Positions 30,240-64,000 of a stretch of 64,000 nucleotides of DNA are shown piece after piece (position 1 is the stretch's first letter; each line of letters begins with the position of its first letter). Both the position numbers and the translations under genes were made by a program. The notes beneath the pieces were generated by a model. It made no database searches and had not been told where the DNA came from. It was given only the letters and a program-made list of their open reading frames with translations. The stretch lies in assembly GCA_964596355.1 (NCBI GenBank), contig CAZQTD010000001.1:68446-132445 (forward strand), read 5' to 3'. The stretch comes from an uncultured Gammaproteobacteria bacterium. Lineage in GTDB: Bacteria > Patescibacteriota > Microgenomatia > UBA10105 > UBA927.

Positions 30240-30278
<39 letters not shown>

Positions 30279-30344: not shown

Positions 30345-30445
30345 GCACGCTGGTAGTTCATTGTTCATCGTTCATGGTTCATAGCCACAATGAATTTTTC
30401 ATTATACCTATGAACTAATAACTATGAACCAATAACTATCAGCAT
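30345..30445. repeat. Second AT-rich expansion in 23S (GTTCAT/ATGAAC repeats)
   Basis: Low-GC palindromic segment between conserved 23S blocks. Confidence 0.5.
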
Positions 30446-36535: not shown

Positions 36536-38182
36536 TCACCGAACGTTATACATCGTCACCGTGGCGTTATTCCACACCGGCGTAAGAAACGGGTACTGCA
36601 TGGGGTGCGTTTGAAAAGCTTTTGATTCCGTGTCATCAAACACATACCGTATGTCGTTGTCATGGAGGAACGCGTATGCTTCATCATTCGTCATCTTGGA
36701 AGCGTAAAAGAGCGCAGTTTTATCCATTTTTTCATTCCAACGATATGTAAGGAAATAATATCCGACAAATGAGATGACTGGAGTAAAGCTCGGTATCACG
36801 TTTGATAACACCTCTCCGGCTAGGATATGGGTATCAGGGGGAATTCGTTTGTCCGCCTCGCGGATGGCTTCCATATAGTCGGCCGGAAGGTAAATATGGG
36901 AATAAAACGGAGATTCTCTCATAGCTTCGCTCCACATGGTTTTGCCCCATACCCCGACCATGAAAAAAGAATACAGGATATACAGTATTGTGACGGAGAT
37001 AAGGAGCGCCTTTGGAACATATGTTGGGAGAATTGATGTTAGCGCGTAGGTTGCTGTGATAGCAAGCGGGATTTGGATGACGCAATGGATGAGCCTAAAT
37101 TTACTTATCACCAGCGGGTCAAGAAATGGATACATCAGAATGGGCAATGCTGTCCAACCGGCAAGACTTAGCAACGCTATGTTTTTTTTGCGGACGGCAT
37201 ACAGCCACGTAATGATTGATGGAATAATAAGGGGAGCAAACGAAAGATACATATGATATCCAAAATACGGATCTGTGTTCCAAAACTGCGGTTCAAAGCT
37301 TCGATAGAACGACCAGACGCTATCAGTCACTGCGTACTGCTGGAAGAGCCAAATGACGCCCAGCGCAGGGGCAGAAAGGACGAGAACGGTTGCCCACAAA
37401 GGACCAATGTCTGCCATTGGTCTGTGACGAGAAAACAACGGTATCGTCTGGAGTAAACTAACGGTTCCTACAATAAACAGAAACGGTACGACGCCTTGAG
37501 GGATCATCAGTGCGCACAGCGCGCCGCTGATACTTGAGCCGACCAAAAACGTCATCTTTTTGGTGCGGCGGAAGCGGAAATACCAAGCGATAGCCAAAGC
37601 CAGAAATGCTCCGGCTACGGCGTAATGCGGTCTATTGTCTAATCGTCCCACGGCGCTCAAGTGCTCTTTCCACCACGGCATAAATGAGTGGATGACGGTT
37701 TGATCGTACAGCCAATCAGGGAGCGTCGTTGTGACCAGAGCGATGATGGTGGCAAGACTGGCGACCCATGGTTTTTTCAGAATAACGCGGGCAAGGTAAT
37801 ATATAGCGATGACAAACCCAGCCTCTGCCACCAGCTTTGCGAAATGATAGACATAGGGCGGCCACAGGTGAAACGGTCCGGTGATCCAGCCGAAGAAGAG
37901 GTAGTAAACATAATACGGAAGGGAAAGGACGGGTTCTGTGGTATTGGGGTTGCGATACATCGTGTAGCCATGTTGTCCGAGGGTGATTTTGGAAAGATAG
38001 GCGTGGTAGTCTTGAGCAAGACCTTTATGCTGCCATATGCTTGTTCTTCCCATTAAATCCGTCCGGGTGAAACGAGCAATCATTGGCATATAGCTCGTAG
38101 TGAGGATAATGAGGAATGTTACAATGATGGCAAGGTGCCACAGTGTCGCATTTCGGAAAAAGGGCTTGTTACTACGTGGCAT
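36536..38182 (-). CDS. Large polytopic membrane protein, GT-C-fold glycosyltransferase-like (uncertain)
   Basis: More than 12 TM helices with an aromatic-rich loop. Start taken at MPRSNKPFF (38182); the track start at 38395 would overlap radA. Confidence 0.6.
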   Translation of the reverse strand: MPRSNKPFFRNATLWHLAIIVTFLIILTTSYMPMIARFTRTDLMGRTSIWQHKGLAQDYHAYLSKITLGQHGYTMYRNPNTTEPVLSLPYYVYYLFFGWITGPFHLWPPYVYHFAKLVAEAGFVIAIYYLARVILKKPWVASLATIIALVTTTLPDWLYDQTVIHSFMPWWKEHLSAVGRLDNRPHYAVAGAFLALAIAWYFRFRRTKKMTFLVGSSISGALCALMIPQGVVPFLFIVGTVSLLQTIPLFSRHRPMADIGPLWATVLVLSAPALGVIWLFQQYAVTDSVWSFYRSFEPQFWNTDPYFGYHMYLSFAPLIIPSIITWLYAVRKKNIALLSLAGWTALPILMYPFLDPLVISKFRLIHCVIQIPLAITATYALTSILPTYVPKALLISVTILYILYSFFMVGVWGKTMWSEAMRESPFYSHIYLPADYMEAIREADKRIPPDTHILAGEVLSNVIPSFTPVISFVGYYFLTYRWNEKMDKTALFYASKMTNDEAYAFLHDNDIRYVFDDTESKAFQTHPMQYPFLTPVWNNATVTMYNVR

Positions 38183-38298
38183 TCCTTTAATTGTAGCACA
38201 CGACGTCGTTTGGATAGACGCAAATGCTTGCCTCTTTACGTTCAGAAATGGTGTACAATAGCTCAACGATACACTCGTATTCGTGATATACACCGCGT

Positions 38299-39630
38299 AT
38301 GAGCAAATTGAAATCGTCTTTCGTCTGCCAGCAGTGCGGGTATGAGACATCTTCATGGTTTGGGAAATGTCCAAATTGCGATACGTGGAATTCATTGGTA
38401 GAGACTGTCAAAGAATCACCGGGAATTAAGAATTCAGAATTAAGAACTACGAGCGGAAAGCAAGTAGCTCCGCAGAAACTTTCTGAAGTCAGACATATCG
38501 AGAAAAACCGGCTCAAGAGCGGGTTTGAGGAGTTTGACCGCGTGATGGGCGGGGGGATTGTGCCCGGATCTGTTACCTTACTTGCGGGCGATCCGGGGAT
38601 TGGCAAATCGACGTTGCTCCTCCACGTGCTTGCCAAAACAGGCGGACTGTACGTTTCCGGTGAAGAATCGGCAGAGCAGATTAAGCTGCGGGCCAAGCGG
38701 CTGGGGATACGTGGTGAAAACATAGAAATTCTTGCAGAGACGAACGTTGAGTTAATTTCTGATGTTATTGGTGCTTATCAAAATCGAACGCCCACTGTCC
38801 ACGCGTCAGCTTCTTTGGTTATCATTGATTCCATCCAAACGCTTTCCTCCGGCGACCTTGAAGGGATGGCCGGAAGCGTTGGGCAGATTCGACACTCGGC
38901 GGAAGTACTCATCGGCGCTGCGAAAAGCTTCGGCGTGCCGGTTATTATCATCGGACATGTGACAAAAGAAGGGGCGATTGCCGGTCCCAAAGTACTTGAA
39001 CACATGGTTGATACTGTCCTCTATCTTGAAGGCGAGCGGTTTGCGGATGCCAGGATTCTGCGGACGCTTAAAAACCGGTTCGGGGCAATTGAAGAAGTGG
39101 GCATTTTCCAAATGGTAGAAAAAGGACTAATAGAAGTAGAAAATCCCAGCGCGCTATTTTTGCAAGATCGAGTAAAAAATGTACCGGGCAGTGTCGTCAC
39201 TGTTATTTTGGAAGGGACGCGGCCAATGCTCGTGGAAATTCAGGCCTTGACGGTTCCAAGTCAGCTGGCAATGCCAAGGAGAGTGGGAAACGGGATTAAC
39301 TACAATAGGCTGCAGCTTCTCGTGGCAATACTGCAAAAGCGTCTAAACCTTCCGCTTGGAACGTTTGACGTATTTGTGAACGTAAGCGGCGGCATAAAAG
39401 TAGAAGAGCCGGCTGTGGATCTGGCAATCTGCATGGCGATACTTTCTTCATTTAAAAACAAACCGCTTGACAGTCAAACCGCGGTGTTTGGCGAGGTGGG
39501 CCTGCTTGGCGAAGTACGACGGACGACCGGAGAAGAGCGCAGGACCAGAGAGGCTAAACGGTTAGGATTCAGCACCATTATTTCTCCCAAGGCGCTCCGT
39601 TCTCTCAAACAGGTAAGCGCCCTTCTGTAA
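38299..39630 (+). CDS. radA: DNA repair protein RadA/Sms
   Basis: N-terminal C4 zinc finger CQQCGYETSSWFGKCPNC, Walker A GDPGIGKST, KNRFG motif, Lon-like C-terminal domain. Confidence 0.9.
   Translation: MSKLKSSFVCQQCGYETSSWFGKCPNCDTWNSLVETVKESPGIKNSELRTTSGKQVAPQKLSEVRHIEKNRLKSGFEEFDRVMGGGIVPGSVTLLAGDPGIGKSTLLLHVLAKTGGLYVSGEESAEQIKLRAKRLGIRGENIEILAETNVELISDVIGAYQNRTPTVHASASLVIIDSIQTLSSGDLEGMAGSVGQIRHSAEVLIGAAKSFGVPVIIIGHVTKEGAIAGPKVLEHMVDTVLYLEGERFADARILRTLKNRFGAIEEVGIFQMVEKGLIEVENPSALFLQDRVKNVPGSVVTVILEGTRPMLVEIQALTVPSQLAMPRRVGNGINYNRLQLLVAILQKRLNLPLGTFDVFVNVSGGIKVEEPAVDLAICMAILSSFKNKPLDSQTAVFGEVGLLGEVRRTTGEERRTREAKRLGFSTIISPKALRSLKQVSALL
38421..38452. repeat. AT-rich in-frame insertion in radA
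   Basis: GAATTAAGAA-ttca-GAATTAAGAA direct repeat. Confidence 0.45.
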
Positions 39631-41357: not shown

Positions 41358-42791
41358 TTACTCCTCCTTCGGGGCGGGTTCACTAGATGTTTGCGTATCC
41401 TCCGGAGGCGTGGAGACTTCTGGGGGTGTGGAGACGCCCATCCCGCTTATTGCCTTTTCCATCATCGGTACAATGCCGCTGCGATACATAACCGGATACT
41501 GGCGCGGGCTTGATAAAACGATAATCGCGACAGCAACAAGCGCTATAGTGAGCCACACAACAGTGAGCCCTGCAGTTCCCAAACCGTATCCCGCGCCGCG
41601 CTTCAGCCCCATAAAGAGGCTTGGGGCGATGAGGAATAATCCGTAGACGCCCAGCGATACGATGACGATAAACGCCGTGACGAGCATCTGGCTTTCATAA
41701 GGAACTACCTGTGAAAGCGAGCGCATGATGATGACGAGCCCCACCGTGAACGCGACGATGACGAATGCAGAAACGAAACTTAGACCGAACGCGAGGAGCA
41801 CGTTTTGTGCCTTGGTGTCCACTGCTGGCTCTTGTTTTGGAGGTGCGCCGCCGTCCTTTACCAGCGTACGGATGATCAAAAACAGGAGGGCTGAGACAAC
41901 AATCAATGCCGCGCCGCCGCCGGCAAGCTCTGTGCCGTAGAGTTTGAGGATCGAATCCGCGTACGCACCTTTCGTGGTGTAGGAGTCAAGCGGCTGGAGG
42001 TTGGTTGCGGTTTTGACGATCTCTCCCTGACCGACCTCTTGGTAAAACCGGTCAATCTGCGCGCTGGCAACCGGCGCTGCCATCGCATCAGCGGCTTTGA
42101 GCGCCATGTTGGCTTCTTCTATGCGGTAGTTCACGCTTCCTTTCACGCCGCGAAGAACCAAGTCCGAATCCGTGCGGATGCCGATCTGAACGTGTTCAAT
42201 CGGCGCGTCGACTTTGAGCGTTTCAAACGTATAGGTGCGCGCGCCAACGATGGTTTTTTTGGTATAGCCTGACGCGCGAAAAGAAAGGAGAATGCTTGCC
42301 GATGCGTTGGGTTTAACGGTTTTTGGGAGAGCAATGGTCAGCGTATCGGTTTTCATTGTCGTTGCCGCCTTTTGGTACTTGGCGGTGCCGTCCCAGATAT
42401 ACAAGTAGTTTGGCTCTTCGTACCGGTCACACACCGGGCTTCGAGATTCCGCCACAAGCGGCTTGTAGCTTACGCAGCGCGGTTCTTTGATGACCTGGTA
42501 GACAACCAAATCTCGGGGCTCCACGCGCGGAACGCGCAAAACAAGCTCGCGCAGGGGCGTTTCTTCGGTATTGGTGAAGATAATGCGCGCGTGTACGACG
42601 GCTTCACCATTGCCGCGAAACGTGACGGTGTAGGCGTGGTTTTGACCAAAGAGCTGGGTGGGATCGCCCGGATAGATCATCATTTCCGAGCGCTTGCCGA
42701 CCGTCTCGTCAATCGTTTGGGCATTGGTGACGGCAGTAGAGACGAACAAGAGAAAAAGGACAGTAACGAGGCTCGCAAGTTTTTTCATCAT
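41358..42791 (-). CDS. Exported protein: signal peptide + ~300-aa extracytoplasmic domain + C-terminal 4-5 TM block + Pro/Glu/Ser/Thr tail
   Basis: Start MMKKLASLVTVLFLLFVSTAVTNA is signal-like. The track start at 42887 is probably too long. Confidence 0.6.
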   Translation of the reverse strand: MMKKLASLVTVLFLLFVSTAVTNAQTIDETVGKRSEMMIYPGDPTQLFGQNHAYTVTFRGNGEAVVHARIIFTNTEETPLRELVLRVPRVEPRDLVVYQVIKEPRCVSYKPLVAESRSPVCDRYEEPNYLYIWDGTAKYQKAATTMKTDTLTIALPKTVKPNASASILLSFRASGYTKKTIVGARTYTFETLKVDAPIEHVQIGIRTDSDLVLRGVKGSVNYRIEEANMALKAADAMAAPVASAQIDRFYQEVGQGEIVKTATNLQPLDSYTTKGAYADSILKLYGTELAGGGAALIVVSALLFLIIRTLVKDGGAPPKQEPAVDTKAQNVLLAFGLSFVSAFVIVAFTVGLVIIMRSLSQVVPYESQMLVTAFIVIVSLGVYGLFLIAPSLFMGLKRGAGYGLGTAGLTVVWLTIALVAVAIIVLSSPRQYPVMYRSGIVPMMEKAISGMGVSTPPEVSTPPEDTQTSSEPAPKEE

Positions 42792-43130
42792 GTAAACGTA
42801 GTGTACACTACGAAAGTCCATTGCTGTCAACCAGTGTGACGCGCGGGTCGTGCCGTGTTTACTATTATTTGCGCCCAGTCGTAACAAAATTTCCTAAGAT
42901 CCCGGCTCGCAGGGTTATCATCATGCGTGCCTCTTCTTGTTTATCTGGCTCGCGTCATCCACCGCATAAGCTGGTGGGTTCCGCGTTCATTGCTCGAGCC
43001 TTCTGGAGTTTAGCTCGGGTGGGATCTACGGAAATTTTATTCTGCCCGCGTGCTTCTCTGTCATAGTGCTTATCTACCAACAGATACATATACAGGTATA
43101 CGTCCGTAATGTGTGTTACAATTTGAAAAC

Positions 43131-44837: not shown

Positions 44838-46535
44838 TTACGGGCAGATTGTTTCTGTTGCAAAAATTGCCGAGCGCCTGTCAGAAGAAACAAACGCCGG
44901 CTGGTATGTCGCAAGGTAGTACGAAAGATCGATCCGCGGCAAATTAGAATCGCCCTGCACGTCTTTCACCGTGATAAACGAGATGTTATACCGCGCAAGG
45001 AGCGGACAGATGACGCTCGTGTCGCGGCTTTCATACATGGTGTTCATCACAGGCATTCTGTTTTCGCGGTATCCCGCGCTCCAGGGAAAGTACGGCCAGC
45101 CCAGAAAAATCCGTCGTCCCGCAATGGAAGCGGGATGATACAGATACTGGTGGTTGAGAAAAATAGCGCCCGGATCCGTGTTGCGGGCGATCCAAGTCGC
45201 TGCCTCATCGGCGGCCACATCCGGCACTCGTCCACGCGTGTCGTTAAATACAACGAAAAAATCGATGAGGCCGCTTAGTGTGAGCGCGCCCACAAGGCTA
45301 AGCGCGGTAACCGCCTGAAGAAGCAGCCTCAATGGCCTCATGGGTACGCGGCTCCACTGGTGAAGAATCCACACAATGGCGTATGCAGAAAGCATGGCGC
45401 CCAGAATCATCATGAAGTTAAAGAATTTGTGGTTCGCGGTAACTTCTACAGAGAACTTAAAGAGGTTGGGGATCAGAAACAGGGGGATAAGAGGGAGGAA
45501 AAGCCTTTTGGTTTTGAGCGGGACAAGGAGGAATCCGATCGGGACAAGGATCGCATGGAGGCCAAGATTGTAGAACCAGTGGGTAACGAATGCGGAAACG
45601 GTCAGCTCATTATGGAGAATGTACCCGGGGTGCCACTCAAACGCTTGTGCGCTGCCTTCTGGCATCGTAAGGATTTGTGGGAGAATCAGAAGCAATCCCA
45701 GAGCGCCAGTTGCTACAAGAAACCATCGAAGGCGCGGAAAACCAAGGAAATATACTGCCATGATGATTGCAGTGATAAGAAGCGTAGGCTGGTGGAAATA
45801 CGGGAGGATGCCCATGGCGATGCCCCAGAGGACTGCCCATGGGAGCTGCGTGCGACGTGGTTTGCGCATGAGCGTTAGGCAGTGTAGGATAAACAGGAGA
45901 ACGAGCGCAAATGCGGCGGCCAAGTGACGCTGGTTCGTGTAGATATTCAGATTCCAAAACGCAGTCACCCAGCCTTCGCCCCACGGCGCAAACGCAGGGA
46001 ACTCGCGGGCGTTGATGATGTCCTGAATTGTGCGGGTCGAAAGCGGGTGGGTGTGGAAAAACCGCAGGAATGCAAGCGATCCGTTGAACAAAAAAAACAC
46101 GAGCGACAACAGGGCAACCGCGGGCTTCTTGAAAACTTGTAGGGCAAACAGATAGATGCCGGCAAGCAGCAAAAAGAATCCCAGCGCGCTGGGCACATTG
46201 AGCGCCCAATCAATGCGAACGCCGATACGCTCAAGCAAGCCCACGAGCATGTAAAAGAGGAAGTGATAGCGGATTGGCTCTCCTGGGAAGATGGGGTACT
46301 CGACCCCCCGGCCGTCGAAGAGCCGCGAGAGATTGTCTCCCATGGAGAAGGAGCGGATGAGCGGGATGTGCGCGCCAAAATCGCTCCAGAGCTTTAAGGC
46401 AATGGTGATGGACTGCCGTTTGGCGTCATATCCGAACGTGTGGAACATGAGGAAGAAAGAAAAGAGAAGCAGGAATGTCATCCCGGCGGAAGCTGGGATC
46501 CATTGTTTTCGTATAACCTTACAAGATTTTTTCAT
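44838..46535 (-). CDS. GT-C-fold glycosyltransferase, ArnT/PMT (GT39/GT83)-like polytopic membrane protein
   Basis: About 13 TM helices; an N-terminal periplasmic-loop acidic motif region. Confidence 0.65.
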   Translation of the reverse strand: MKKSCKVIRKQWIPASAGMTFLLLFSFFLMFHTFGYDAKRQSITIALKLWSDFGAHIPLIRSFSMGDNLSRLFDGRGVEYPIFPGEPIRYHFLFYMLVGLLERIGVRIDWALNVPSALGFFLLLAGIYLFALQVFKKPAVALLSLVFFLFNGSLAFLRFFHTHPLSTRTIQDIINAREFPAFAPWGEGWVTAFWNLNIYTNQRHLAAAFALVLLFILHCLTLMRKPRRTQLPWAVLWGIAMGILPYFHQPTLLITAIIMAVYFLGFPRLRWFLVATGALGLLLILPQILTMPEGSAQAFEWHPGYILHNELTVSAFVTHWFYNLGLHAILVPIGFLLVPLKTKRLFLPLIPLFLIPNLFKFSVEVTANHKFFNFMMILGAMLSAYAIVWILHQWSRVPMRPLRLLLQAVTALSLVGALTLSGLIDFFVVFNDTRGRVPDVAADEAATWIARNTDPGAIFLNHQYLYHPASIAGRRIFLGWPYFPWSAGYRENRMPVMNTMYESRDTSVICPLLARYNISFITVKDVQGDSNLPRIDLSYYLATYQPAFVSSDRRSAIFATETICP

Positions 46536-53949: not shown

Positions 53950-54522
53950 ATGGGCGGATACAAAACCCTCCTCGTCTACCGGTGCGCCGTGACGATTTTT
54001 GATTTTAATGCGATCTTTTGTGAACGATTCCTCGCTGAACCCAAGCACCGCCGGACCGTGGAGCAGATGCACCATGCAGCCAGAAGCGGCAAACAAAATA
54101 TCGCCGAAGGGTCAAAAGAGCTCTCTGCGGCAAGCGATATCACGCTCAACAGCGTCAGCAGGAGTTCATATGCCGAGCTTTCCGAGGATTATGAGGACTT
54201 TTTGCGGTTACGGGGTTTGCCTGTTTGGGCAAAAACTGATCGGCGAGTTCTCCGTATCCGAGCATTCCGAGAATTAGTGGATCGTCCGACCAGTTTATCT
54301 GATATGGCCAGTTGGGCACATTTGGACGTTTTAAATCCGGAGCATTTTGCAAATCTCATGATCACGCTGTGCCAAAAACAGGGGTATCTCATGGATCAGC
54401 TGCTGCGTTTCAAGGAAAAGAAATGTGTGAAAGAAGGTGGATTTCGTGAGAACCTGTTCAAAAAACGAAAGATGTTTAAAGACAAATTCGTCAAATTTGA
54501 CAAATTGGGCTATTTAGGCTAA
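53950..54522 (+). CDS. Four-helix-bundle protein (23S rRNA IVS-protein family) with C-terminal suffix domain
   Basis: YKTLLVYRCA...GKQNIAEGSKE...SYAELSED matches the four-helix-bundle family; a basic C-terminal extension. Confidence 0.7.
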   Translation: MGGYKTLLVYRCAVTIFDFNAIFCERFLAEPKHRRTVEQMHHAARSGKQNIAEGSKELSAASDITLNSVSRSSYAELSEDYEDFLRLRGLPVWAKTDRRVLRIRAFRELVDRPTSLSDMASWAHLDVLNPEHFANLMITLCQKQGYLMDQLLRFKEKKCVKEGGFRENLFKKRKMFKDKFVKFDKLGYLG

Positions 54523-54534: not shown

Positions 54535-54608
54535 GGGCCCGTAGCTCATTTGGCTAGAGCGTCTCTATGGCATAGAGAAGGTGGTCGGTTCGAATCCGAT
54601 CGGGTCCA
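54535..54608 (+). tRNA. tRNA-Ala (anticodon GGC)
   Basis: Manual cloverleaf: acceptor GGGCCCG/CGGGTCC (G3:U70), anticodon loop ATGGCAT, T-arm GTCGG-TTCGAAT-CCGAT. Confidence 0.9.
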
Positions 54609-54679
54609 CTCATTCGTTGCTTTGCTCCTCATGGCAAGCCGTTTGAAGGTTTATCCTAAGTGACGCTCGGCGTCACGAA

Positions 54680-54752
54680 GGGCCAGTAGCTCACCTGGTA
54701 GAGCGCTGCATTCGCATTGCAGAGGTAGGGGGTTCGATTCCCCCCTGGTCCA
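54680..54752 (+). tRNA. tRNA-Ala (anticodon CGC)
   Basis: Acceptor GGGCCAG/CTGGTCC (G3:U70), anticodon loop TTCGCAT, T-arm GGGGG-TTCGATT-CCCCC. Confidence 0.9.
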
Positions 54753-54787
54753 CAGAAGCCAAATTGGTCTCAGTGGCCCACTGTGCG

Positions 54788-55000
54788 TTATCGGGAGGTC
54801 GTCGCGCCGGCAACCATCGGTGCGGTTGGGGCAAGCTGGGTGTTAAGGAAGTTGCCGACGATCGCGCCGATGCCAAGCATCAGGGCAAACGCGACGACAA
54901 ACATCCACCCGCGCACAACAACCAGATAGTCGCCTTTGGCTTTCGTGCGCCTTGCTGAAAGAGGACGATGGTGCGCTCGCTTGAGAGCACGTTTTTTCAT
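54788..55000 (-). CDS. Possible small membrane protein (70 aa)
   Basis: An ORF with a basic N-terminus and one TM helix; no clear RBS. Confidence 0.25.
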   Translation of the reverse strand: MKKRALKRAHHRPLSARRTKAKGDYLVVVRGWMFVVAFALMLGIGAIVGNFLNTQLAPTAPMVAGATTSR

Positions 55001-55155
55001 ACAAGTCTAGTGTGGCACGGAATTTCCCTCCTTGTCAACGTGTAATTTCACAAGGGATACATCAGAGATTGGTCCTTGACACGGCATTTCACGCCCTCCA
55101 TTATATATAATAAGGGTATCGGACGGTTTTCGGGTTTGAAACAGTCGGGTATTCC

Positions 55156-55926
55156 TTGAGACACGTGCCAGGAGTCATCGCCCGGTTTTTTGGCGTTTTA
55201 CGAATACTACGAGTACCACGTCTTGCCATTCTGGTTGTTGGTGCGGTCATTTGTATCACTACTATATATTTTGTTCTTGATTCGAAATTTACCCACCCGC
55301 GCCCCAAACCCACTTCCGCCGTAGTTAGTGACGTTTCTGCGCGATCATTCAACGTCGTCGTGACGTTTCAAGCTCCGGCGCCATTGTGCGCGGTTGCTGT
55401 TACGGTGATCCCGCCGTTTGTGTCTTTTCGTTGTTCTCACACACTGCGCGACATTCACCGCCTGTCGTTTTCCGGATTGTACCCACGGATGCCCTACGTG
55501 GTACTCGTGGGATACGGCACGAGCTGGTGGGTGCGCGCGCCTGCGCACGCAAGCTCTCTGCAGGGAACAACGCAGACAGTTCGTTTCCTTGCAACGACCA
55601 CGCGGGCAAAGGACTTCCTTCCGGCTGAACCCACGTGGCTTCTGGTGGGCACGGTCGTTGATGCCGTGGGCGTGCCGGTTCCTGACGCGGTTGTGACCGC
55701 GCAGGTGGGGCAGAGGAATCTGTTTTTCAGCACCACCACCAACCGCTTCGGCGGTTACCTCATGTCCATTCCGCTGTCTAGTATCCCCCCGAAAGGCGCA
55801 ACGCCGGACGATGATGCGGCAACGATACTCGTGCGCAAAGACGGGAAAGAAACCAGCGTTGTCCAGTCGCTTTCCCGCGTGTCACGGATCCCGCAGGAAA
55901 TGACACTAGAGTTAGTGCAACGGTAA
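55156..55926 (+). CDS. Membrane-anchored hypothetical protein with carboxypeptidase-regulatory-like beta domain
   Basis: N-terminal TM, then a C-terminal LLVGTVVDAVGVPVPDAVV...RFGGY beta-sandwich pattern. Start ambiguous (TTG 55156 or GTG 55165). Confidence 0.55.
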   Translation: MRHVPGVIARFFGVLRILRVPRLAILVVGAVICITTIYFVLDSKFTHPRPKPTSAVVSDVSARSFNVVVTFQAPAPLCAVAVTVIPPFVSFRCSHTLRDIHRLSFSGLYPRMPYVVLVGYGTSWWVRAPAHASSLQGTTQTVRFLATTTRAKDFLPAEPTWLLVGTVVDAVGVPVPDAVVTAQVGQRNLFFSTTTNRFGGYLMSIPLSSIPPKGATPDDDAATILVRKDGKETSVVQSLSRVSRIPQEMTLELVQR

Positions 55927-55936: not shown

Positions 55937-58900
55937 ATGACTACGAAAAACACCAAACGATATCAGATTCTCAAAAGCGCAGGGATCATCCAGCTTCTGC
56001 CGCTCGTTCTTCTGGTTGGGTTCGCCACGACGATATTCGTTGTCGTGGGGCAGGTTGTCCGGAACCGGCAGGAGGTGCGGAGCCGTGCGGCGATCAATTG
56101 TTCCATGCTTCCTCCGGAAGATAAGGCTGCGTGCTTAGCTGCGAAAGAAGACGAAGAGCAAAATGAGCCCACCGGGCCATCCGGAGGTGGGTCTTCTACC
56201 GGAGGGACCGGAGGGACCGGAGGGATCGGAGGGACCGGAGGGACCGGAGGGACCGGTGGGACCGGTGGGACATCGGGGGGTACAGCAAGCTTCACGAGCG
56301 AGAAATCACAAAAAGCTAAATGCACCGACGGAAACACCCGGTGTCATAACGGCATCAGGCAATTTTGCGATGGCGGATCATGGGTGCCGGCGGGGGGAAC
56401 GTGTGGAGCTGGCGGTACGACGCCCGCGCAACCAACAGTTGTGGAAACTTCCCCGGCGACAACAGGGTGTACAACCGGTCAGAGCCGGTGCATTGATCAT
56501 ATACGGCACTACTGTATCGATGGCATGTGGCAATCACAGGGAACGTGTGACTTGGGAACAAACGCGACGCCTCCGCCGGTAATCACAGGAGAAGGTGGAC
56601 ATTGCGGGCAGAACGGCTACCGGCCATGTCCTGCGGGCGATTCCTGTGCCGCGGGATTAGTGTCGCTCGGCGGCATCTGCCAACCACCTCCGGCTGCTCC
56701 ACCGGCCGGTCAGGCGCCGGTTGTTGGGAATGAATGTTCAGGTCAAGGCTCATGGGCTTTAGGCGGCGTGATTTATAACTGTGTGGGCGGCACGTGGTCG
56801 ATAACCGGTGTTTATGAAACACCATCGCCCGCGCCACCGGCCGATGGAGGCGGGTGTACCGATGGGCAAACACGGTGCACCAATAATGTGAGACAACTTT
56901 GCGATGGCGGCGCATGGCATGACGTTGGTGCGTGCACCATCACCCGTGAGATACAATTTGTGGTTACACCAACATCAATAACTCCTAGCACCACCCCACC
57001 ACCTTCTGGTGTAGAACGTGGCAAGGGGCGTGACGGTAGGATTAATAGACGTGTCCGTTCGCTAACACCACCGCAACAGGCACCGGTCGTGGCAAACGTG
57101 ACGCCAACCAGAACTCCTGCGCAGCAAGCTAACTATATGGCCTGTATTGATGCTGCAACGTCATTTGGTCAGATTGTTGCATGTGATAAAAACAGCCGCC
57201 GCCCGCCGACGCCGACAGCTCCAGTCGAACCAGAACAGCCGTCAGGAGGATTCGGGGTATTGCTAGCATTCGACACATGCATAGGAACTCCAGGACAAAC
57301 TGCGTCTAGCTGTCGACGGTACCTATCAACCACGTCGACGACTCAACCATTAGAACCTTCCGCTAACGATGAGACAGGCGCTTCAGTCGTTGATGAGGGA
57401 GGGGGGACTCCTTCTGTGCCTGCCGCAACCACGCCTGTGGCTGGTGGCGCGGCGCTCACTTCAGGCGGAGAACTTGCCAGCACTGTTTCTTTAGGAAGTG
57501 ATATCGTCATCCACATTACCGCGGATCCGGTGCCTCAAACGAATTTGTTTGGACCCGATATGGTCAATCCGGTGCAGGCAGGCTCGGATGCGTATTCCGC
57601 GTGTATCCAGGGCGGCGGGGATCACGGCGGGTGCGAGGCGGTTGCGCGCGAAGCATATATCGCCGCCGAGCGCGCCTTGCCGGCGGGCATGTGGGACAAT
57701 CCGCAGTATCAACTGTATAAAGCAATCACCAATGCGCACAATGATGCGCGCGCGGCGTTTGTCGCGGTGCAGGAAAGCCAAGGCAGTACGTTTTCCGGAG
57801 ATGCGGCGCTGGACGATGTGACGGCGCTGGGTCAGGCAAGTGAGGCGCTCCTTCGGGCAATCGCTCAAGCAGCTGCTGAAGGGGCAACTCCTGAAGAACT
57901 TCACGAACTGGCGCTCTCCATGGCATCCAACCTCGGATCACAGGTTGGCACGGATGGATTCGCCAATATGCTCGCAAGTGTCAACAGCCCCGGTCCGGTA
58001 GGCGGCGCGCCGGCACCTGCTTCTGCGCAGGACCTTGCCATTGACTGCGAGGGCGCGGTGACGGATGACTGCGGAACGCTTGCGACCGTGGGCGTGGGCG
58101 CAAATACACCGGATATCTGGGACGACGGCGTCTGCACGGTCCAGCGGCAGGCAAACGGTTTATATAGAAATCTGGGGTGTACTGGCGCGGTATGGGGGCG
58201 CGTCGATCCAACCGGTGTTGTCATTGCCGTCTACACGTGTGCCGGCGGGCAAAATAGTTGCCGGTCAAATAGCGATGGGAACGGGATCTGTGATTACGGT
58301 GAAAATGGGAGCGAAAATCCCAATGATTGCCTTCCCGGAGTCACCGGAGGGTTAGGACTTGCGGAACAGAGTACGGGCACGGTCAATCCCAACTACCGCG
58401 AGGTCGACACGATTGAGGCTATTAGAATGAGAAACACGTTACAGCAGGTGCTGGAGGAGCACCCAGAACTTGTAGAAGAGCATGTTTCGAGTGATACCAG
58501 TTCGGGAGAAAACATTTTACCTGCTGCCATGATCCAAACGGCGCTCAACCAACTGGGGCTCACCGGATCTGCCGGACAACTGACGCTTGAGGACGTCTAT
58601 CGTACGTACTACGTCGATCAAATTTGCCAGCCCGATGACACGACCTGTGTGAACGCGCACGCCGATACACCCCTTGCCGACCTGCGGATAGAAAGTGAGG
58701 CGGTGAATTTATGCGCACTTCGCGGGGATACCACTGACAGTTGTGTTAGCGAGGTTATTGAAGATTTTGGCGGGAATGAAGAAGAGCTCCTTGCGGCGAT
58801 TAATCAGCAACAACTGTCCAATGACCGCCGCGCCGCATGCGGGTATGCAGAGGGTGGAGGCGCCGTTGGCAGACAGGATGCCGCGTACATCGCGTGCGTA

Positions 58901-61900
58901 AATCAACTGCCGGATGATCCGGCAGAGGTTCACCGGTTGGGGGTAATAGGGCAGTTCTGCGCCACACAACCAAATCCTGCGCAATGCAGAACAGCAAATC
59001 GTACGGTTGAACAGATGGACCAAGTGATTGCAGATGCACAGGCATTTTATGACGCCCTTTATCAGAAATATGTAGAGACGGGTACTGAATCACTGCTAAC
59101 ACTCTTACCGGCTCAATTACAAGATTCGGCTCAATCAGATCGGCACATTCAAGAACTTTACTCTATTGCCGTAGAGTATACCGATCAAGAGCTTATTGAC
59201 CGCTGCACAGCAGGCGCACGTACAGAGAATGCGCTTCAATGGTGTCGAGATGCAGGAAGGATTCGCGCTTCGTATATTAACAGCCTCCCGACTGCCGAAC
59301 TTCGACAACAGGCACAAACCGATAGAAACATATATGTTGCATATCAATCCTATGTGCAAAAAGGAAATAATATTGACCTCAACCAACTTCCTCAAGACAT
59401 GCGTGATGATGCACAACAAGCGCGCGAAGAACAACAGCGGATGGTGGAGCTTGCGCAAGCGTATGCTAATGGAGGGTCTGAGCTGGCTGCTGCCTGTGAT
59501 CAGGAGTTTAGACGATTTTGTACTAATCAAGATTTGGAAGCATTTACCAATCAAATAGAAAGGGTTTTTGGACAAGCGGTAACAGTAGAACTTCAGGCGC
59601 AGCGGCAGCAGAATACCATCGTTCAGCATTCAATAGAAGCGATTCTTAACGGTGATAGAGCAGGAGTTTTATCTGGTTGTGAGGAAATGTTTTCCGGTTC
59701 AGAGCGTGAACGAATGTGCGGCGATAATTTGAATAATTACTATGAATACATTACCGGGTTGTATGAATCCGGACAGGTACAAGAAACCGTTCAGTACGCA
59801 GTTAATAGGCTTCAGGCGTATGAGCGGTACCGTGCCACCCACGACGTTACTTACCATCAATTTGTGACAGAACAAGAAGAGGCGCTCAATGCGATGAGAA
59901 CGAGGCTTCTGAACCTTGGAGCGTATGAACTTGCGCAAGCTCAATGGGAGCGGGGAGAGGTTTTACCTACCGACATGCGTGACGTGGTCGCCGCAAATTC
60001 AAACCTTTTCCGCAATCCAGCAGGATTTTTGGCGATGCAATTCAATAATTTGACCGGCGGCGCGTACCTGCGAAATCGCCTTGGCGAAGGGTATACACAA
60101 GCGCGCGTCGATATGCTTCTTGCCTCCCGAAGCCCTGCAGAACAGGCCGCTGATCTTGCTGCCATTAGGGTGTCAGAAGCGTTTCGTAGTTATATAAGTA
60201 ATAATAAAATTAGTATCACACCCGAAGCGTATCAACGCCAATTGCTTACCGAGTATGTGGAGAACGAACAGGCGCTGCGCGTCCATGGGACAGTAACCGA
60301 CCAGACACAACAAACGTTCCTTAATCTCGTGTTCCGCGGAGATTCTTTAGCGCTGGAGACCGTGCGGGAAGCTCGGCCGACATCGCAGGACAGAGCTGCA
60401 GGTATCGTAAACCGGCTTCCGATTATTTCTAATATCAACAACCTTTTTATCCCCGAGTCAGTACGAGTTGAGCAGCGTAACTGGACAGCAGAACTTATTA
60501 TCCGAGATAGAGAAGGAGCCAATCCGGAAGAGATGGAACACGTACGGCAAAACATTGCCGAGTCAGACACGTTCCAGACATGGTGCGACTATCACAGTGA
60601 CCATTCGTGCAACAATGAGGACGTGCGGGATTTTCAAAAGTACCAGTTGTCTGGCGTGCTGGCGCTGGAAGAAAACTCTCGATATCGGGATGTGTTTGCC
60701 ATGGTGGACACGCAATGGATGCGCGACGCGGCACTCAATGGAACCATGAGTGTCGATGATCTGGAGAGCGCATTAATTCAAGCCCGCATACATGAACAGC
60801 AGGCGAGTGACGATCTCGTTTCACAAGCTGGCAGAAGTGCGGGTGGCATGGGGGCCGCTATCGTACAATCCAGAGCGACACGCATTGCACGGGAAACGTT
60901 CCGCACACAAGTAGCAGATATCTTCTATGATGCGTTTCGAAATAGTTTATCAGAGGAAGAACGGCAACAGCTTGATACTGTCACGAGACAATCTGCATGG
61001 TTTCAGCAGTGGGGGATGGAATCGCCAGGACAGTTCGACGTTGAAGTGTTTCAGAGGCAACAGGCCGAAAGTTTTATGAGGCGTGCTGACGATATAAATC
61101 TTCTGTTAACTGCGGCAAACACGAGGGTAACGTTTGCGGAAGCAATAAGCGGACAGATCAATGCTATCGGCATGGAACAGGCGCTTGACGACCCAAACCT
61201 GATTGTTCAAGCAGCGCTTGGAATTAACCGATTTACCAACGGTTCACTTGTCCGCGGAAGAATCGTGATGACTCAAGGGGCAGAAGATTGGCGGGAAAAC
61301 GGACCAAGCCTTAGAGCGGCGTGGGACGTAACCCGCGGAGCAGTGATGCAAACGGCAAAGCCCGTCGGCGCGGTTCTTGCGGTGGCAATTCCCGGCGGCC
61401 AGCTGGTAGGAGCAGTTGCCAGCGGAGCGTCGGCGGCTGCGCTTGCGCCGGTTGTCATCAGCAGTATCTCAACAGGCGCAGGGGTGTATTTCGCCGGAGA
61501 AAGCACCGCGGCAACAGCAGAAGTCTGCGGAGGGACGAACGTAAATACGATGGAATGCGTTGGATCGGCAACGATGACCGTATTTTCCTGGTCGATTGCC
61601 GCACAGGGGCTAACCGGCCTCGGTCGCACCGCAGCGATTGCGAGAGCAACGGGAAATGCCGGGACAGCGGCAGCAGCGGAAGTTGCAGTAGCAAGCGGCC
61701 AAGCGCTTGCGCAATTCAGTGAGCAAAACGTCCAGCAGATAGAACAGGCCGCAATAGAAGCGATACGCAGGGCAAGCACGCTTTCGCCGCTTCAACAGGC
61801 GTTCGTATCCAGACCTGCGCAGGCAGTGACACAAGCCCTTGGCGCTGCGACGTTCGGCATACAAGCGGCACAGGTATGTTCGCAAGAAGGGTTTACCTCG

Positions 61901-64000
61901 AACTGCCTGTTGACCGGCGCGATGGCTGCAATGTCGATAGCGCACTTGGGAACAGGCATAACACATCCTGCTGTCGCCGAACAGGCAGGATTTCGCGTAG
62001 CCAACGGCATCATAGCCGGCGGCTTTGCTTTAAATGCCTGCGGATTGGGAGCAGAAGGTCCCGGCGGGATAGAACAGTGTAGCTTGGCTATTGCCATGGC
62101 AGTCCCTGCGCTTACGCCGCAGGGACTTATGCGCGGGCCTGAACAGTCTCGCTTATCTCTTGAAAAACTTGAAAGCGAGGTGACGGCTGCAAGAACAGAT
62201 ATCGGCCGGTTGAACCGCGCATCAGAAAGCGAGGAATTCACGATTCTCAAACCTGACGGGAAACAAGAGATCGTTAGACTCAACGAATCAAACAAACCAA
62301 TTATTCAAGCAGGACTGATGCGCAGGTATCAGGCGGCAATGATTGATCTGGGTATTGTGGAGGGCGCAGTGAGCAATGCCCAGCGTATCCTTCGGGACAC
62401 GCCGATAGCAGAAAGAACTGATCTACAGAGACAACTGGCTCGCGCACAGCAGGAGGTAAACACCATGATGGGTGAAGGCGGAAGGCCGCGCGAGGGATTT
62501 AACCAAGAGCAGGTTCGTGCGGCACGAGAACGCCTGCTGATTGCTGCGCTTGCGGCAAACGGAGAATACCTGCTTCTTACAGCACAACCCGCTCGGCAGA
62601 CGCTGGTAGAGCGGGCGATAGCAGGTATCCGGCGCGCACTGGGCATACAGGAATCGGGTGCGGCGCTCGCGTACGAACAAGCCAGGCAAGCGTTCCTGGA
62701 CGTTGCCAGGCATGACGGAGCGGTAACGACGCCGGAATATTTGGAACGATTAACCAACCTTACCGCTGCATACAATGCGCTTCGGCCCAGAGACACCCTT
62801 ACCGTCGGATACCGCAGCGGATCCGCACTTGAGGAAGCAACAGCGGTGGTTCGCGAGATGGAAACTCGTAATGAAAAACAATTTAACACAGCTCAAGAGC
62901 GTCAGGAGTTGATACGAGAAATTGCCCGGCAACTGACTATTGCGCGGGGAGTAGAGGATGTTCCGGTTGATATTCGCCTAGAGATTGAGAGAATTGTTGC
63001 ACAATCGAATAGATTTCGCGAAAAGTTTACCACCTTCAACATGGACGATCAGAATTTCCGCGCAGAAGACAGTGTCTATGAGCTGTGGAGAAAGATCGTC
63101 AACGGTGAAAATCTCGCAAAGGGACAAGATTATTATACGGATTCAGGCTCCGAAGCTTTACAAGTGCGCCAAGAGGCGATGGCGCTTGCCCGCGACGTGT
63201 GGGCGAGGCTTCACCCGGAATTGCCTGCGGCGCAATCATGGATTGCCGCAGGCGTTATCGGCGAGGTTGAAGGCGCGTTCCGATCGATCATTTACGATCG
63301 ATTACGTACTATCGTGGATAAACTCAATAGTGGCGTGGGATTGACCGGACAAACGAGATATGACGATGCTGGCAAGCAGCTCGAAGGTATCGTTAACGAC
63401 CGGGGACAAATCATAGATCAAGCTGTCCGCGAGCGGCTTATTGGTGACATTGCAACGAGATTAGGAGATCGGGTTCCGGTGGAGCAACGTCGGGACATGG
63501 CGCGCCGCATCGTGGAATCATTTGAAGGAATGCTCGGCGCCCACAGGCAGGACATTCTCAATGAAGCGCGAGGGCTCATATCGATTGAAGGAGACGCCAC
63601 CACCACTGACGCGACTATTGCGTTAGGTGATTCAAATACGTTTCAAAGAACCGTTATTGATGTTTCGTCCCAGCGTCAGCGAATGCTTGCTGACGCGCAA
63701 ACGCGGGGACTGGGAGCGTACGAGGTTCCTATTGCCAGACGTCCGGAGTCGCCCGGCGGACCAATCGCTCGGCTTGCGCAGCGGCTGGAGATTCCCGGGC
63801 GCATACAAATACTGCGCGATGCGGCAATTGAAGGACTCTGGGGGACGCTCGATAAGCCCACGCTTCTTAGGCGCATCCTAGATCCCGTTGCAGGAAGAAA
63901 CATTGAACTTGCGGTACTTGGTAATGCAGTGCGCGATGGAACGCTTACCGTGCGCTACGAAGTGACGGAGCTTAATGGCAGTGTAACGTCGTTTAAAGAG
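55937..64000 (+). CDS. Giant surface protein, >=2688 aa, 3' end outside window: TM anchor, (GGT)n linker, 4 Cys-rich modules, long helical region, Ala/Gly-rich hydrophobic segments
   Basis: Codon-by-codon checks at six spread positions found no stop from 55937 to the window end. The ORF track lists no complete + strand ORF in this frame, consistent with no stop. N-terminal IIQLLPLVLLVGFATTIFVVV. Cys modules CTDGNTRCHNGIRQFCDGGSW, CTTGQSRCIDHIRHYCIDGMW, CSGQGSWALGGVIYNCVGGTW, CTDGQTRCTNNVRQLCDGGAW. Confidence 0.8.
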   Translation, partial: MTTKNTKRYQILKSAGIIQLLPLVLLVGFATTIFVVVGQVVRNRQEVRSRAAINCSMLPPEDKAACLAAKEDEEQNEPTGPSGGGSSTGGTGGTGGIGGTGGTGGTGGTGGTSGGTASFTSEKSQKAKCTDGNTRCHNGIRQFCDGGSWVPAGGTCGAGGTTPAQPTVVETSPATTGCTTGQSRCIDHIRHYCIDGMWQSQGTCDLGTNATPPPVITGEGGHCGQNGYRPCPAGDSCAAGLVSLGGICQPPPAAPPAGQAPVVGNECSGQGSWALGGVIYNCVGGTWSITGVYETPSPAPPADGGGCTDGQTRCTNNVRQLCDGGAWHDVGACTITREIQFVVTPTSITPSTTPPPSGVERGKGRDGRINRRVRSLTPPQQAPVVANVTPTRTPAQQANYMACIDAATSFGQIVACDKNSRRPPTPTAPVEPEQPSGGFGVLLAFDTCIGTPGQTASSCRRYLSTTSTTQPLEPSANDETGASVVDEGGGTPSVPAATTPVAGGAALTSGGELASTVSLGSDIVIHITADPVPQTNLFGPDMVNPVQAGSDAYSACIQGGGDHGGCEAVAREAYIAAERALPAGMWDNPQYQLYKAITNAHNDARAAFVAVQESQGSTFSGDAALDDVTALGQASEALLRAIAQAAAEGATPEELHELALSMASNLGSQVGTDGFANMLASVNSPGPVGGAPAPASAQDLAIDCEGAVTDDCGTLATVGVGANTPDIWDDGVCTVQRQANGLYRNLGCTGAVWGRVDPTGVVIAVYTCAGGQNSCRSNSDGNGICDYGENGSENPNDCLPGVTGGLGLAEQSTGTVNPNYREVDTIEAIRMRNTLQQVLEEHPELVEEHVSSDTSSGENILPAAMIQTALNQLGLTGSAGQLTLEDVYRTYYVDQICQPDDTTCVNAHADTPLADLRIESEAVNLCALRGDTTDSCVSEVIEDFGGNEEELLAAINQQQLSNDRRAACGYAEGGGAVGRQDAAYIACVNQLPDDPAEVHRLGVIGQFCATQPNPAQCRTANRTVEQMDQVIADAQAFYDALYQKYVETGTESLLTLLPAQLQDSAQSDRHIQELYSIAVEYTDQELIDRCTAGARTENALQWCRDAGRIRASYINSLPTAELRQQAQTDRNIYVAYQSYVQKGNNIDLNQLPQDMRDDAQQAREEQQRMVELAQAYANGGSELAAACDQEFRRFCTNQDLEAFTNQIERVFGQAVTVELQAQRQQNTIVQHSIEAILNGDRAGVLSGCEEMFSGSERERMCGDNLNNYYEYITGLYESGQVQETVQYAVNRLQAYERYRATHDVTYHQFVTEQEEALNAMRTRLLNLGAYELAQAQWERGEVLPTDMRDVVAANSNLFRNPAGFLAMQFNNLTGGAYLRNRLGEGYTQARVDMLLASRSPAEQAADLAAIRVSEAFRSYISNNKISITPEAYQRQLLTEYVENEQALRVHGTVTDQTQQTFLNLVFRGDSLALETVREARPTSQDRAAGIVNRLPIISNINNLFIPESVRVEQRNWTAELIIRDREGANPEEMEHVRQNIAESDTFQTWCDYHSDHSCNNEDVRDFQKYQLSGVLALEENSRYRDVFAMVDTQWMRDAALNGTMSVDDLESALIQARIHEQQASDDLVSQAGRSAGGMGAAIVQSRATRIARETFRTQVADIFYDAFRNSLSEEERQQLDTVTRQSAWFQQWGMESPGQFDVEVFQRQQAESFMRRADDINLLLTAANTRVTFAEAISGQINAIGMEQALDDPNLIVQAALGINRFTNGSLVRGRIVMTQGAEDWRENGPSLRAAWDVTRGAVMQTAKPVGAVLAVAIPGGQLVGAVASGASAAALAPVVISSISTGAGVYFAGESTAATAEVCGGTNVNTMECVGSATMTVFSWSIAAQGLTGLGRTAAIARATGNAGTAAAAEVAVASGQALAQFSEQNVQQIEQAAIEAIRRASTLSPLQQAFVSRPAQAVTQALGAATFGIQAAQVCSQEGFTSNCLLTGAMAAMSIAHLGTGITHPAVAEQAGFRVANGIIAGGFALNACGLGAEGPGGIEQCSLAIAMAVPALTPQGLMRGPEQSRLSLEKLESEVTAARTDIGRLNRASESEEFTILKPDGKQEIVRLNESNKPIIQAGLMRRYQAAMIDLGIVEGAVSNAQRILRDTPIAERTDLQRQLARAQQEVNTMMGEGGRPREGFNQEQVRAARERLLIAALAANGEYLLLTAQPARQTLVERAIAGIRRALGIQESGAALAYEQARQAFLDVARHDGAVTTPEYLERLTNLTAAYNALRPRDTLTVGYRSGSALEEATAVVREMETRNEKQFNTAQERQELIREIARQLTIARGVEDVPVDIRLEIERIVAQSNRFREKFTTFNMDDQNFRAEDSVYELWRKIVNGENLAKGQDYYTDSGSEALQVRQEAMALARDVWARLHPELPAAQSWIAAGVIGEVEGAFRSIIYDRLRTIVDKLNSGVGLTGQTRYDDAGKQLEGIVNDRGQIIDQAVRERLIGDIATRLGDRVPVEQRRDMARRIVESFEGMLGAHRQDILNEARGLISIEGDATTTDATIALGDSNTFQRTVIDVSSQRQRMLADAQTRGLGAYEVPIARRPESPGGPIARLAQRLEIPGRIQILRDAAIEGLWGTLDKPTLLRRILDPVAGRNIELAVLGNAVRDGTLTVRYEVTELNGSVTSFKE
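56198..56269. repeat. 9-bp tandem repeat (ACCGGAGGG)n encoding (GGT)n in the giant ORF
   Basis: accggagggaccggagggaccggagggatcggagggaccgg... read directly. Confidence 0.85.

Follow-up and report, generated by a model that had tools for sequence, protein, structure and literature searches.

The 64,000-nucleotide stretch of DNA analysed here (hereafter the window; contig CAZQTD010000001.1 of assembly GCA_964596355.1) ends inside a giant gene on its forward strand, and this gene, the protein that it encodes and the family to which that protein belongs are the subject of this report. Translation of positions 55937..64000 (+) yields 2,688 sense codons with zero stops, beginning at an ATG (55937) that is the first in-frame start downstream of an in-frame TAG at 55913 and running off the window end. 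At a composition of ~54% GC, 2,688 codons would be free of stops by chance with a probability of ~1e-49. The longest open reading frame (ORF) in the five remaining frames is 186 amino acids (aa), and the codon frequencies of the giant ORF correlate with those of the other window genes with r = 0.59 in frame, compared with 0.31 and -0.13 in the shifted frames. An earlier note on this DNA had described a single frame open from this ATG, shadow ORFs over it on both strands and a gene cut by the window end, and each of these observations was reproduced: the frame is open to 64000 and the frames of many relatives described below stay open far longer. The segment 55937..64000 is the 5' 8.06 kb of a much longer gene. 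A self-BLAST of the giant protein found no long internal repeats.

A family of giant proteins

The 2,688 residues encoded in the window have no sequence match in Pfam, NCBIfam, PHROG or the PDB. An exhaustive HMMER search with aa 1489-2688 against 1.84 billion representative proteins returned 13 true relatives (P0001-P0013, E 9e-29 to 5e-12), mostly fragments, and one spurious repeat protein. P0003 is MCL4200413.1, a 5,459-aa 'hypothetical protein, partial' from a Patescibacteria group bacterium; on its contig (L003) the frame bridges a 10-N scaffold gap, covers 6,623 codons and runs off the contig end, which makes it the longest relative. Because of this gap (L003 17179..17188), the giant gene of GCA_023382895.1 is annotated as two partials, of 5,459 and 1,110 aa. 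Single-protein scans of genome and metagenome contigs gave no match, and further loci came from a profile of the conserved core described below: nine from 185,579 species genomes and eight more from metagenome contigs. Three of these 17 loci (L003, L004 and L014) are near-identical, which leaves ~15 distinct genomes, and the named records are Gottesmanbacteria or Patescibacteria. The giant frame is open for 1,100 to >6,600 codons at the 17 loci; at 13 loci plus L003 it covers 4,070 to >6,600 codons and always runs off the end of the retrieved DNA. As defined in this analysis the family comprises P0001-P0013 and L003-L021, and phmmer comparison of its members with the window protein gave E values of 1e-19 to 6e-57. 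As far as sampled, the family is confined to Gottesmanbacteria-like Patescibacteria. No paper was found to contain both 'Gottesmanbacteria' and 'giant', nor was any found that describes this rare family. The metagenome-assembled genome (MAG) records behind L005, L006, L008 and L010 are titled 'uncultured Gammaproteobacteria bacterium', and their Rho and M23 peptidase are 60-75% identical to Gottesmanbacteria-type genes; the taxon labels of these four records look wrong.

The window protein is a divergent member of this family, with similarity confined to aa 13-54, aa ~1293-2290 and aa 2412-2514, the last of which matches P0002 only. The main homology-bearing region (aa ~1293-2290, 59813..62806, +) was delimited by phmmer and tblastn against P0001-P0013 and L003-L021; within it, aa 2086-2286 were aligned to the family by hhalign with a probability of 92%, so that homology continues past the core to aa ~2290. 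The window protein comes closest to L021 (28% identity over 936 aa) and P0002/L013. Before aa ~1290 no sequence is alignable, and all members share the same style, namely Pro/Thr-rich linkers and small Cys modules followed by helices with isolated Cys pairs. The genome of the window is otherwise seen only as short (1.5-2.9 kb) Logan contigs from runs SRR10095373 and SRR10095374. On the closest contig, L013 (14942..17086), an intein splicing domain (E=2e-13) lies in a downstream ORF of 1,773 aa. This contig has a coverage of 3.9x, and the ORFs that follow one another on its one strand may be a single gene interrupted by sequencing errors. They were also considered as split-off C-terminal domains of the L003-type giants, and no similarity was found.

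Comparison of the orthologues L014 and L015 gave ratios of nonsynonymous to synonymous substitution rates (dN/dS) of 0.02-0.12 over the first ~4,000 codons, values that are rough since dS is near saturation. Because the frames are open, the synteny described below is fixed and dN/dS is low, the giant gene is real, vertically inherited and constrained, and it is neither a chimera nor a mobile cassette. A chimera of several genes was one outcome that the earlier note had named as fatal to its own reading, and the stop-free frame, the consistent codon use and the relatives with one long frame contradict it. More broadly, it is very improbable that an assembly chimera, several genes or a pseudogene has been misread as a single frame. 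The L002 gene does lie in three ORFs, L013 shows several ORFs at its low coverage and L003 is split by its scaffold gap; however, 11 other assemblies from different studies carry a single frame of >4,000 codons at the same place, dN/dS is well below 1 over the whole length, and the window frame combines an absence of stops with consistent codon use.

Layout of the N-terminal part

The protein begins with a signal-anchor helix (aa 20-38; 55994..56050, +) with a mean Kyte-Doolittle hydropathy of 2.53, in agreement with the N-terminal transmembrane (TM) helix reported before. phmmer matches aa 13-54 to P0005, L006 and L008, and the motif G-[FI]-x-Q-LLPL...R-[SQ]-[RF]-A-A is common to the window protein and its relatives. 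A class III (prepilin) signal, with its short basic leader ending in Gly, F/M at +1, Glu at +5 and ~20 hydrophobic residues thereafter, was considered for this segment and rejected: the window sequence ...KSAG|IIQLLPLVLLVGF has the Gly and the hydrophobic run, but position +5 is Leu rather than Glu, and the relatives (...GG|F[VI][QR]LLPL) have Leu at +5 too. The second membrane module of the giant protein, described below, also misfits a type IV pilin. About 25 codons before the TM helix, L003, L005-L008, L015 and L016 share the near-identical DNA element (A/T/C)TG TTC CAC TTT TTT ATA GAT TGT TAT (MFHFFIDCY). Because ATG, TTG or CTG occupies the same position, this element is probably the true start of the relatives' gene, with CTG in some. 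The window gene starts with a plain ATG and does not have the element, and the NCBI annotation of P0003 begins at a TTG inside the TM helix.

Downstream of the anchor, Tandem Repeats Finder located the 9-bp repeat seen in the earlier reading, ACCGGAGGG, at 56198..56271 (+; 8.2 copies, 95% matches, score 127), which is translated as STGGTGGTGGIGGTGGTGGTGGTGGTSGGT and forms a (GGT)n linker. It is followed by a region of Cys modules separated by Pro/Ala/Thr-rich linkers (56321..56935, +; translation and alignment A4). Four modules of one pattern had been proposed here. The modules exist, but inspection resolves them as three canonical 4-Cys copies plus two variants. The canonical copies, which fit the pattern C-x2-G-x2-R-C-x4-R-x2-C-x2-G-x-W-x5/6-C fully, occupy aa 129-156 (56321-56404, +), aa 178-204 (56468-56548, +) and aa 307-333 (56855-56935, +); the variants are an unrelated 4-Cys module at aa 223-248 (56603-56680, +) and a degenerate 2-Cys copy at aa 267-291 (56735-56809, +). 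Neither Pfam nor the PDB contains a match to the Cys modules.

Stalk, core and Cys-free part

From aa ~403 to 1791 (57143..61309, +) the ectodomain is a Q/E/A/R-rich stalk, delineated by its Cys positions and a shuffle test. It contains 15 isolated Cys pairs spaced 7-19 residues apart, in units of helix, disulfide-closed turn and helix, and relatives show the same motif style. Of the helical region of >1,500 aa claimed earlier, aa 1489-2688 are predicted to be helical, by an AlphaFold model from a single sequence that has low confidence (pLDDT 41), whereas aa 540-1488 were checked by composition alone.

The stalk leads into the core (aa ~1792-2060; 61310..62116, +), which is the best-conserved block of the family in alignment A1 and, judged from this alignment, family hydrophobicity, loop charge and the Cys boundary, a probable membrane module. 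It comprises ~seven helices that are ~95% uncharged and rich in Ala, Gly, Ser and Thr, with a family mean Kyte-Doolittle value of 0.9-1.4. The Ala/Gly-rich hydrophobic segments of the window protein (aa 1806-1852 and 1990-2043) had been noticed before; they exist, but they do not form the end of the protein, for 630 Cys-free residues come after them. Three helix-turn-helix hairpins each carry a conserved Cys pair (C1864/C1874, C1981/C1990 and C2035/C2048), and the family motifs RGxVMxTAKPVG, MTGxSLAQTAExC...C..SAGMT.FA, ALGTxVFGxQAxxxCSxxGxxxDCLL and VN...A..AC....G....C are all present in the window protein. Relatives in alignment A1 are 25-32% identical to the window protein, with an invariant Gly and Cys and more near-invariant positions, including a Cys; the three Cys pairs are invariant or nearly so. 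Profiles of the core, of the Cys module and of the ATPase region of relatives described below had no match in the PDB. The low-confidence structural model of the core gave a match that amounts to generic helical-bundle similarity (Ala/Gly-rich uncharged hairpins with flanking amphipathic helices); the core differs from this match in having a disulfide at each hairpin tip and bears no sequence relation to it. A conserved beta-hairpin motif, EEFTILKPDGKQEIVRL, follows the core (62231-62281, +; alignment A1) within a charged, helical and probably cytoplasmic region (aa 2061-2688; 62117..64000, +) that is free of Cys, as are the last 640 aa as a whole.

Topology of the giant protein

The distribution of Cys residues in the window protein is far from random. 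All 56 of them fall in pairs 7-19 residues apart, a result equalled in 0 of 5,000 shuffles. Because 25 of the 28 close pairs lie within the first ~1,750 residues after the anchor, this part is almost certainly extracytoplasmic. The last pair is that of the third core hairpin, and no Cys is found in the 640 residues after aa 2048, such that the protein switches at the core from 2.7% paired Cys to zero. The probability of this absence is ~2.5e-8 at the density of the N-terminal part and ~0.004 at the window average of 0.88%. The switch recurs in 13 of 13 relatives tested, in which Cys amounts to 1.2-2.9 per 100 aa up to the core end and 0-0.15 beyond it, over 450-4,900 residues. Across the family, the three disulfide loops of the core are net acidic (K+R 2-5%, D+E 14-18%), whereas the two putative inner loops on the opposite side are net basic (+1.0 and +1.25 per sequence). 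With an acidic disulfide side and a basic other side, the loop charges therefore agree with the positive-inside rule.

The earlier note had interpreted the protein as a surface protein held solely by its N-terminal helix. This is probably not the case, given the Cys switch at the conserved core and the cytoplasm-type domains beyond the core in relatives. An explicit form of that idea is a wholly extracellular giant adhesin, in which the N-terminal helix would be the sole anchor and the Ala/Gly-rich module a soluble bundle within a host-binding surface fibre. We consider such an adhesin unlikely: paired Cys give way to none precisely at the core, both in the window protein and in 13 relatives, the core loop charges obey the positive-inside rule, and the P-loop ATPase, FHA and PP2C domains that follow the core in relatives require a cytoplasm. 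On the strength of the Cys switch, the loop charges and these cytoplasm-type domains, the favoured order is instead an anchor, a ~1,750-aa ectodomain, a membrane module that would cross an odd number of times with its disulfide loops outside, and a very long, putatively cytoplasmic part.

Domains beyond the core in relatives

Inspection of the Cys-free part of the relatives reveals a divergent SF2-type P-loop domain with Walker A, DE Walker B and TGT motifs, which scores 28 bits against Pfam DEAD and 24 bits against ResIII, at or near threshold. This domain lies 500-830 aa after the core motif, and FHA domains (E=1e-11 to 1e-19) are found further on. One lineage (L010) has a PP2C phosphatase domain (E=3e-8). 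Three relatives have HopA1-effector-like matches of 27.3, 23.5 and 20.7 bits, two of them above the Pfam cut-off of 22.7, and L006 has a sub-threshold PRTase-CE match. Since the ATPase, FHA and PP2C domains depend on ATP and phosphoproteins, they require a cytoplasm. Pfam scans of the post-core parts of L017, L018 and L020 were empty, so that the domain picture describes a subset of members.

The far C-terminal region is variable. L014 and L015, whose cores are 93% identical, retain 83-93% amino-acid identity up to aa ~3,980, after which identity is 56%, 29% and 66% in successive stretches. The domain order also changes past this point, with FHA in L015 where L014, L003 and L005 have the HopA1-like domain. 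This divergence looks like C-terminal cassette replacement.

Replacement of this kind raises the question of whether the protein might be a single-chain device for contact-dependent delivery, whose ectodomain would bind a host, whose hairpins would form or enter a conduit in the cell's own or the host membrane, and whose ATPase would drive late export of the C-terminal region. The excess Cys depletion and the C-terminal replacement (from 83-93% to 29% identity after aa ~3,980 behind a 93%-identical core) keep this reading in play: a >10-fold exclusion of Cys is what would be expected of an export-competent chain. The HopA1-effector-like matches, two of the three above cut-off, point the same way, as does the lineage-variable enzyme-like content (PP2C in L010, sub-threshold PRTase-CE in L006), and a SecA-like DEAD domain that follows the TM anchor of Omnitrophota giants has been proposed to serve their own secretion (10.1101/2023.11.21.568195). 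However, none of these features lies within the window. Unlike typical toxin cassettes, the gene occurs as a single, syntenic copy that is inherited vertically and subject to strong purifying selection, and neither an immunity-like gene nor a known trafficking domain was seen in the sequence covered. Moreover, the Pfam matches are marginal and three other relatives are without any. A delivery device is for these reasons rather improbable. Slightly less probable again is its most elaborate form, a one-polypeptide delivery machine of an episymbiont in which an FHA/PP2C-gated SF2-type ATPase would thread Cys-free, variable C-terminal domains (HopA1-like, PP2C, PRTase-like) into the host; were this so, the window would, on an equally slender chance, encode the docking part and the conduit part.

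Genomic context

The remainder of the window is ordinary bacterial chromosome, with an ATP-dependent DNA ligase, a copper ATPase, glutamate dehydrogenase, RadA, Rho and 23S-5S rRNA. Upstream of the giant gene lie genes for a DUF2298 membrane protein (48814-51117, +; Pfam), which we take to be glycosyltransferase-C-like, for Rho (51266-52774, +; Pfam) and for a LysM-LysM-M23 peptidase (52831-53907, +; Pfam), followed by the tRNA-Ala(GGC) and tRNA-Ala(CGC) genes (54535..54753, +; ARAGORN, Rfam). The order DUF2298, rho, LysM-M23, two tRNA-Ala and giant gene is kept wherever upstream DNA is present, as determined by BLAST for L004-L008 and by the same ORF pattern for L014-L020. The tRNA-Ala(GGC)/(CGC) pair adjoins the giant gene in 12 relatives' loci, found among L003-L008 and L015-L021, and between the M23 gene and the giant gene its order and strand flip between genomes. 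In the giant protein itself Ala is the commonest residue (333/2,688, or 12.4% versus 8.2% in other genes), and Ala codon usage is not unusual. From adjacency alone, the LysM/M23 peptidoglycan hydrolase and the DUF2298 protein could serve assembly or modification of the giant protein.

This fixed setting bears on whether the protein could belong to a mobile element, such as a phage tape-measure-like or conjugation protein with hydrophobic Gly/Ala segments. The protein's length, helical character and Gly/Ala-rich hydrophobic segments, together with the neighbouring M23 peptidase gene, would suit such an origin; however, PHROG gave no match, phage records, plasmids and viral contigs were all without a match, the housekeeping synteny on the chromosome is fixed across genomes, and the protein starts with a signal anchor and contains 28 Cys pairs of the disulfide type. 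An origin in a mobile element is accordingly extremely unlikely. The specific candidates of a phage tape-measure, plasmid or conjugation protein were rejected, there being no tape-measure family match in PHROG or Pfam, housekeeping neighbours and no tail-gene cluster.

Immediately upstream, a 256-aa ORF (55156..55926, +) ends 10 nt before the giant ORF and has no counterpart at the relatives' loci, which makes it lineage-specific; it is probably co-transcribed with the giant ORF. It had been described as a membrane-anchored beta-domain protein. The TM segment is present, but the beta-sandwich-like domain amounts to a sub-threshold CarboxypepD_reg-like match (25.9 bits versus a cut-off of 32.3). 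A promoter-like site upstream of it, TTGACA-17-CATTAT (55076..55104, +), is a consensus match alone, at 10/12 positions. A 70-aa ORF with one TM helix (MKKRALKRAHHRPLS...; 54788..55000, -) lies between the tRNAs and the 256-aa ORF; gene calls on two independent Logan contigs include it, and the corresponding position in L003 is taken by a gene of 72 aa, likewise on the minus strand. A 190-aa ORF (53950..54522, +) resembles, below threshold, the four-helix-bundle proteins of the 23S rRNA intervening-sequence family; L006 carries a 51%-identical copy in the opposite orientation, and the loci of the other relatives lack it.

Compared with the loci of MAGs named Candidatus Gottesmanbacteria or Patescibacteria group, Rho shows 73-75% identity over the conserved C-terminal ~415 residues and the M23 peptidase 61-65%. 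The 23S rRNA match (29614..33984) spans 4,371 nt compared with a 2,925-nt model, which corresponds to ~1.4 kb inserted, and the insertion contains an ORF (31984..32553, +) for a LAGLIDADG homing endonuclease (Pfam E=2.6e-20). The affinity of Rho and the peptidase and this intron-like insertion support the ultra-small type of bacterium assumed in the earlier note. A 16S rRNA gene was not found in the window, which has a tRNA-Ala(UGC) at 29288. Four further ORFs of 509-619 aa (36536..38395, -; 41358..42887, -; 44838..46535, -; and 11115..12662, +) have no Pfam family at E<=1e-5; the last of these shows weak Rad50 zinc-hook and PHP_C matches (E<=0.01), both under the Pfam cut-offs.

Discussion

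The analysis establishes that the gene is real, and likewise its family and synteny, the core, the Cys switch and the domains of relatives; the topology of the giant protein, the coupling of its parts and any host-binding role are inferences. The best reading is that of 'ectodomain, membrane module, cytoplasmic part of clade-specific giant protein', which replaces 'N-terminally anchored surface protein'. As to function, we give about an even chance to an envelope-spanning tether or sensor, in which an ectodomain is joined by the membrane module to a cytoplasmic ATPase/phospho-signalling part. The signal anchor at the N-terminus would hold the chain in the membrane, and the ~1,750-aa ectodomain would present flexible Gly/Thr- and Pro-rich linkers with 4-Cys modules, then a disulfide-closed helical stalk. 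The ~270-aa Ala/Gly-rich module would bring the chain back through the cell's own membrane, with an odd number of crossings and its disulfide loops facing outward. The Cys-free helical part would lie inside the cell and, as in relatives, may lead to a divergent SF2-type ATPase, FHA and other domains. A rapidly diverging ectodomain would in this way be coupled, via the membrane module, to a cytoplasmic part that uses ATP and reads phosphothreonine. Host binding by such a protein would be plausible for a Patescibacterium, which is pure inference on our part.

Several observations weigh against the envelope-spanning reading. The core helices are only moderately hydrophobic (Kyte-Doolittle 0.9-1.4 versus 2.5 for the anchor), they contain conserved polar residues and two of them are short (12-13 aa). 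The post-core Cys depletion, >10-fold relative to the other window genes with their average of 0.88%, exceeds what a cytoplasmic location explains. The ATPase, FHA and PP2C domains are seen in relatives only, and the window ends 716 aa past the core motif without a Walker A. Furthermore, aa 2290-2688 match one relative only (aa 2413-2514 to P0002) and none of the L003-type giants, and on L013, the closest contig (3.9x coverage), the ORF stops ~720 aa after the core. Finally, Pfam, NCBIfam, PHROG and PDB sequence searches found neither a binding nor a catalytic domain in the window part, in line with the earlier note, which had recognised no catalytic motif there.

How Patescibacteria recognise and exploit hosts is largely unknown beyond cultured Saccharibacteria. 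The giant gene is clade-wide, strongly constrained and takes up >1.3% of a ~1.2 Mb genome, and its product is a candidate envelope-spanning link from the cell surface to cytoplasmic ATP and phospho-signalling. Its outside, membrane and inside parts are clearly separated around a core that has no Pfam or PDB match, and the sharp Cys boundary offers a simple topology marker. That closely related genomes differ by the replacement of a C-terminal cassette points to conflict, or evolution of specificity, that is still under way.

It is useful to compare the family with known systems of long surface proteins. CdiA-type and other polymorphic toxins have a long stalk-like N-terminal part and a constant region followed by a swapped C-terminal region, with a proposed two-step export. 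The present family resembles them in its stalk-like N-terminal part, in a C-terminal region that is swapped between close relatives and in the two-step export that may be proposed for it. However, Pfam and NCBIfam searches of the window protein and the scanned parts of relatives turned up none of the TPS, FHA-repeat, Rhs, LXG or pretoxin domains, and unlike CdiA and the polymorphic toxins the family gene is vertically inherited and syntenic, with no immunity gene seen in the DNA covered. The organism is probably single-membraned, unlike CdiA hosts.

The proteins Giant1-5 of Apilactobacillus kunkeei, a symbiont with a small genome, are extracellular and 3,000-8,000 aa long (PMC12863079). The likeness lies in a multi-thousand-residue surface protein, a percent-level share of the genome and a presumed role in cell-cell interaction, and the difference in that those giants are described as extracellular, with no second membrane module and no cytoplasmic ATPase/FHA part mentioned in the abstract (PMC12863079). 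The A. kunkeei giants did not appear in the exhaustive search of 1.84 billion proteins; a direct homology comparison was not made.

The closest parallel in layout is found in Omnitrophota, whose large and giant proteins have an extracellular N-terminal part, TM anchors and then a divergent SecA_DEAD domain (10.1101/2023.11.21.568195). West-Roberts et al. 2023 define 'large' as >=10,000 aa and 'giant' as 30,000 aa, and Patescibacteria (also known as CPR) are not among the phyla that they list (10.1101/2023.11.21.568195). The Archaeovorin and Dockerin types share with the present family very long single ORFs, ultra-small bacteria and a host- or prey-dependent lifestyle. The layout is also alike: the N-terminal part is mostly extracellular, TM segments come next and a divergent DEAD-type P-loop domain after them, with most of the length unannotated. 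However, the Omnitrophota giants belong to a different phylum, reach 10,000 to >30,000 aa and carry SecA_DEAD together with a preprotein-binding domain, as well as carbohydrate-active or dockerin domains, and no sequence relation was found. The window protein is >2,688 aa and its longest relative spans at least 6,623 codons before running off its contig end. SecA_DEAD was not reported in the relatives even at E<=1, where only the DEAD and ResIII models appeared. The present family instead has its own disulfide-stapled Ala/Gly core, plus FHA, PP2C and HopA1-like domains. What was reported for Omnitrophota, a giant protein that brings its own DEAD-type motor, would thereby extend to a second ultra-small lineage, through a family of unrelated sequence.

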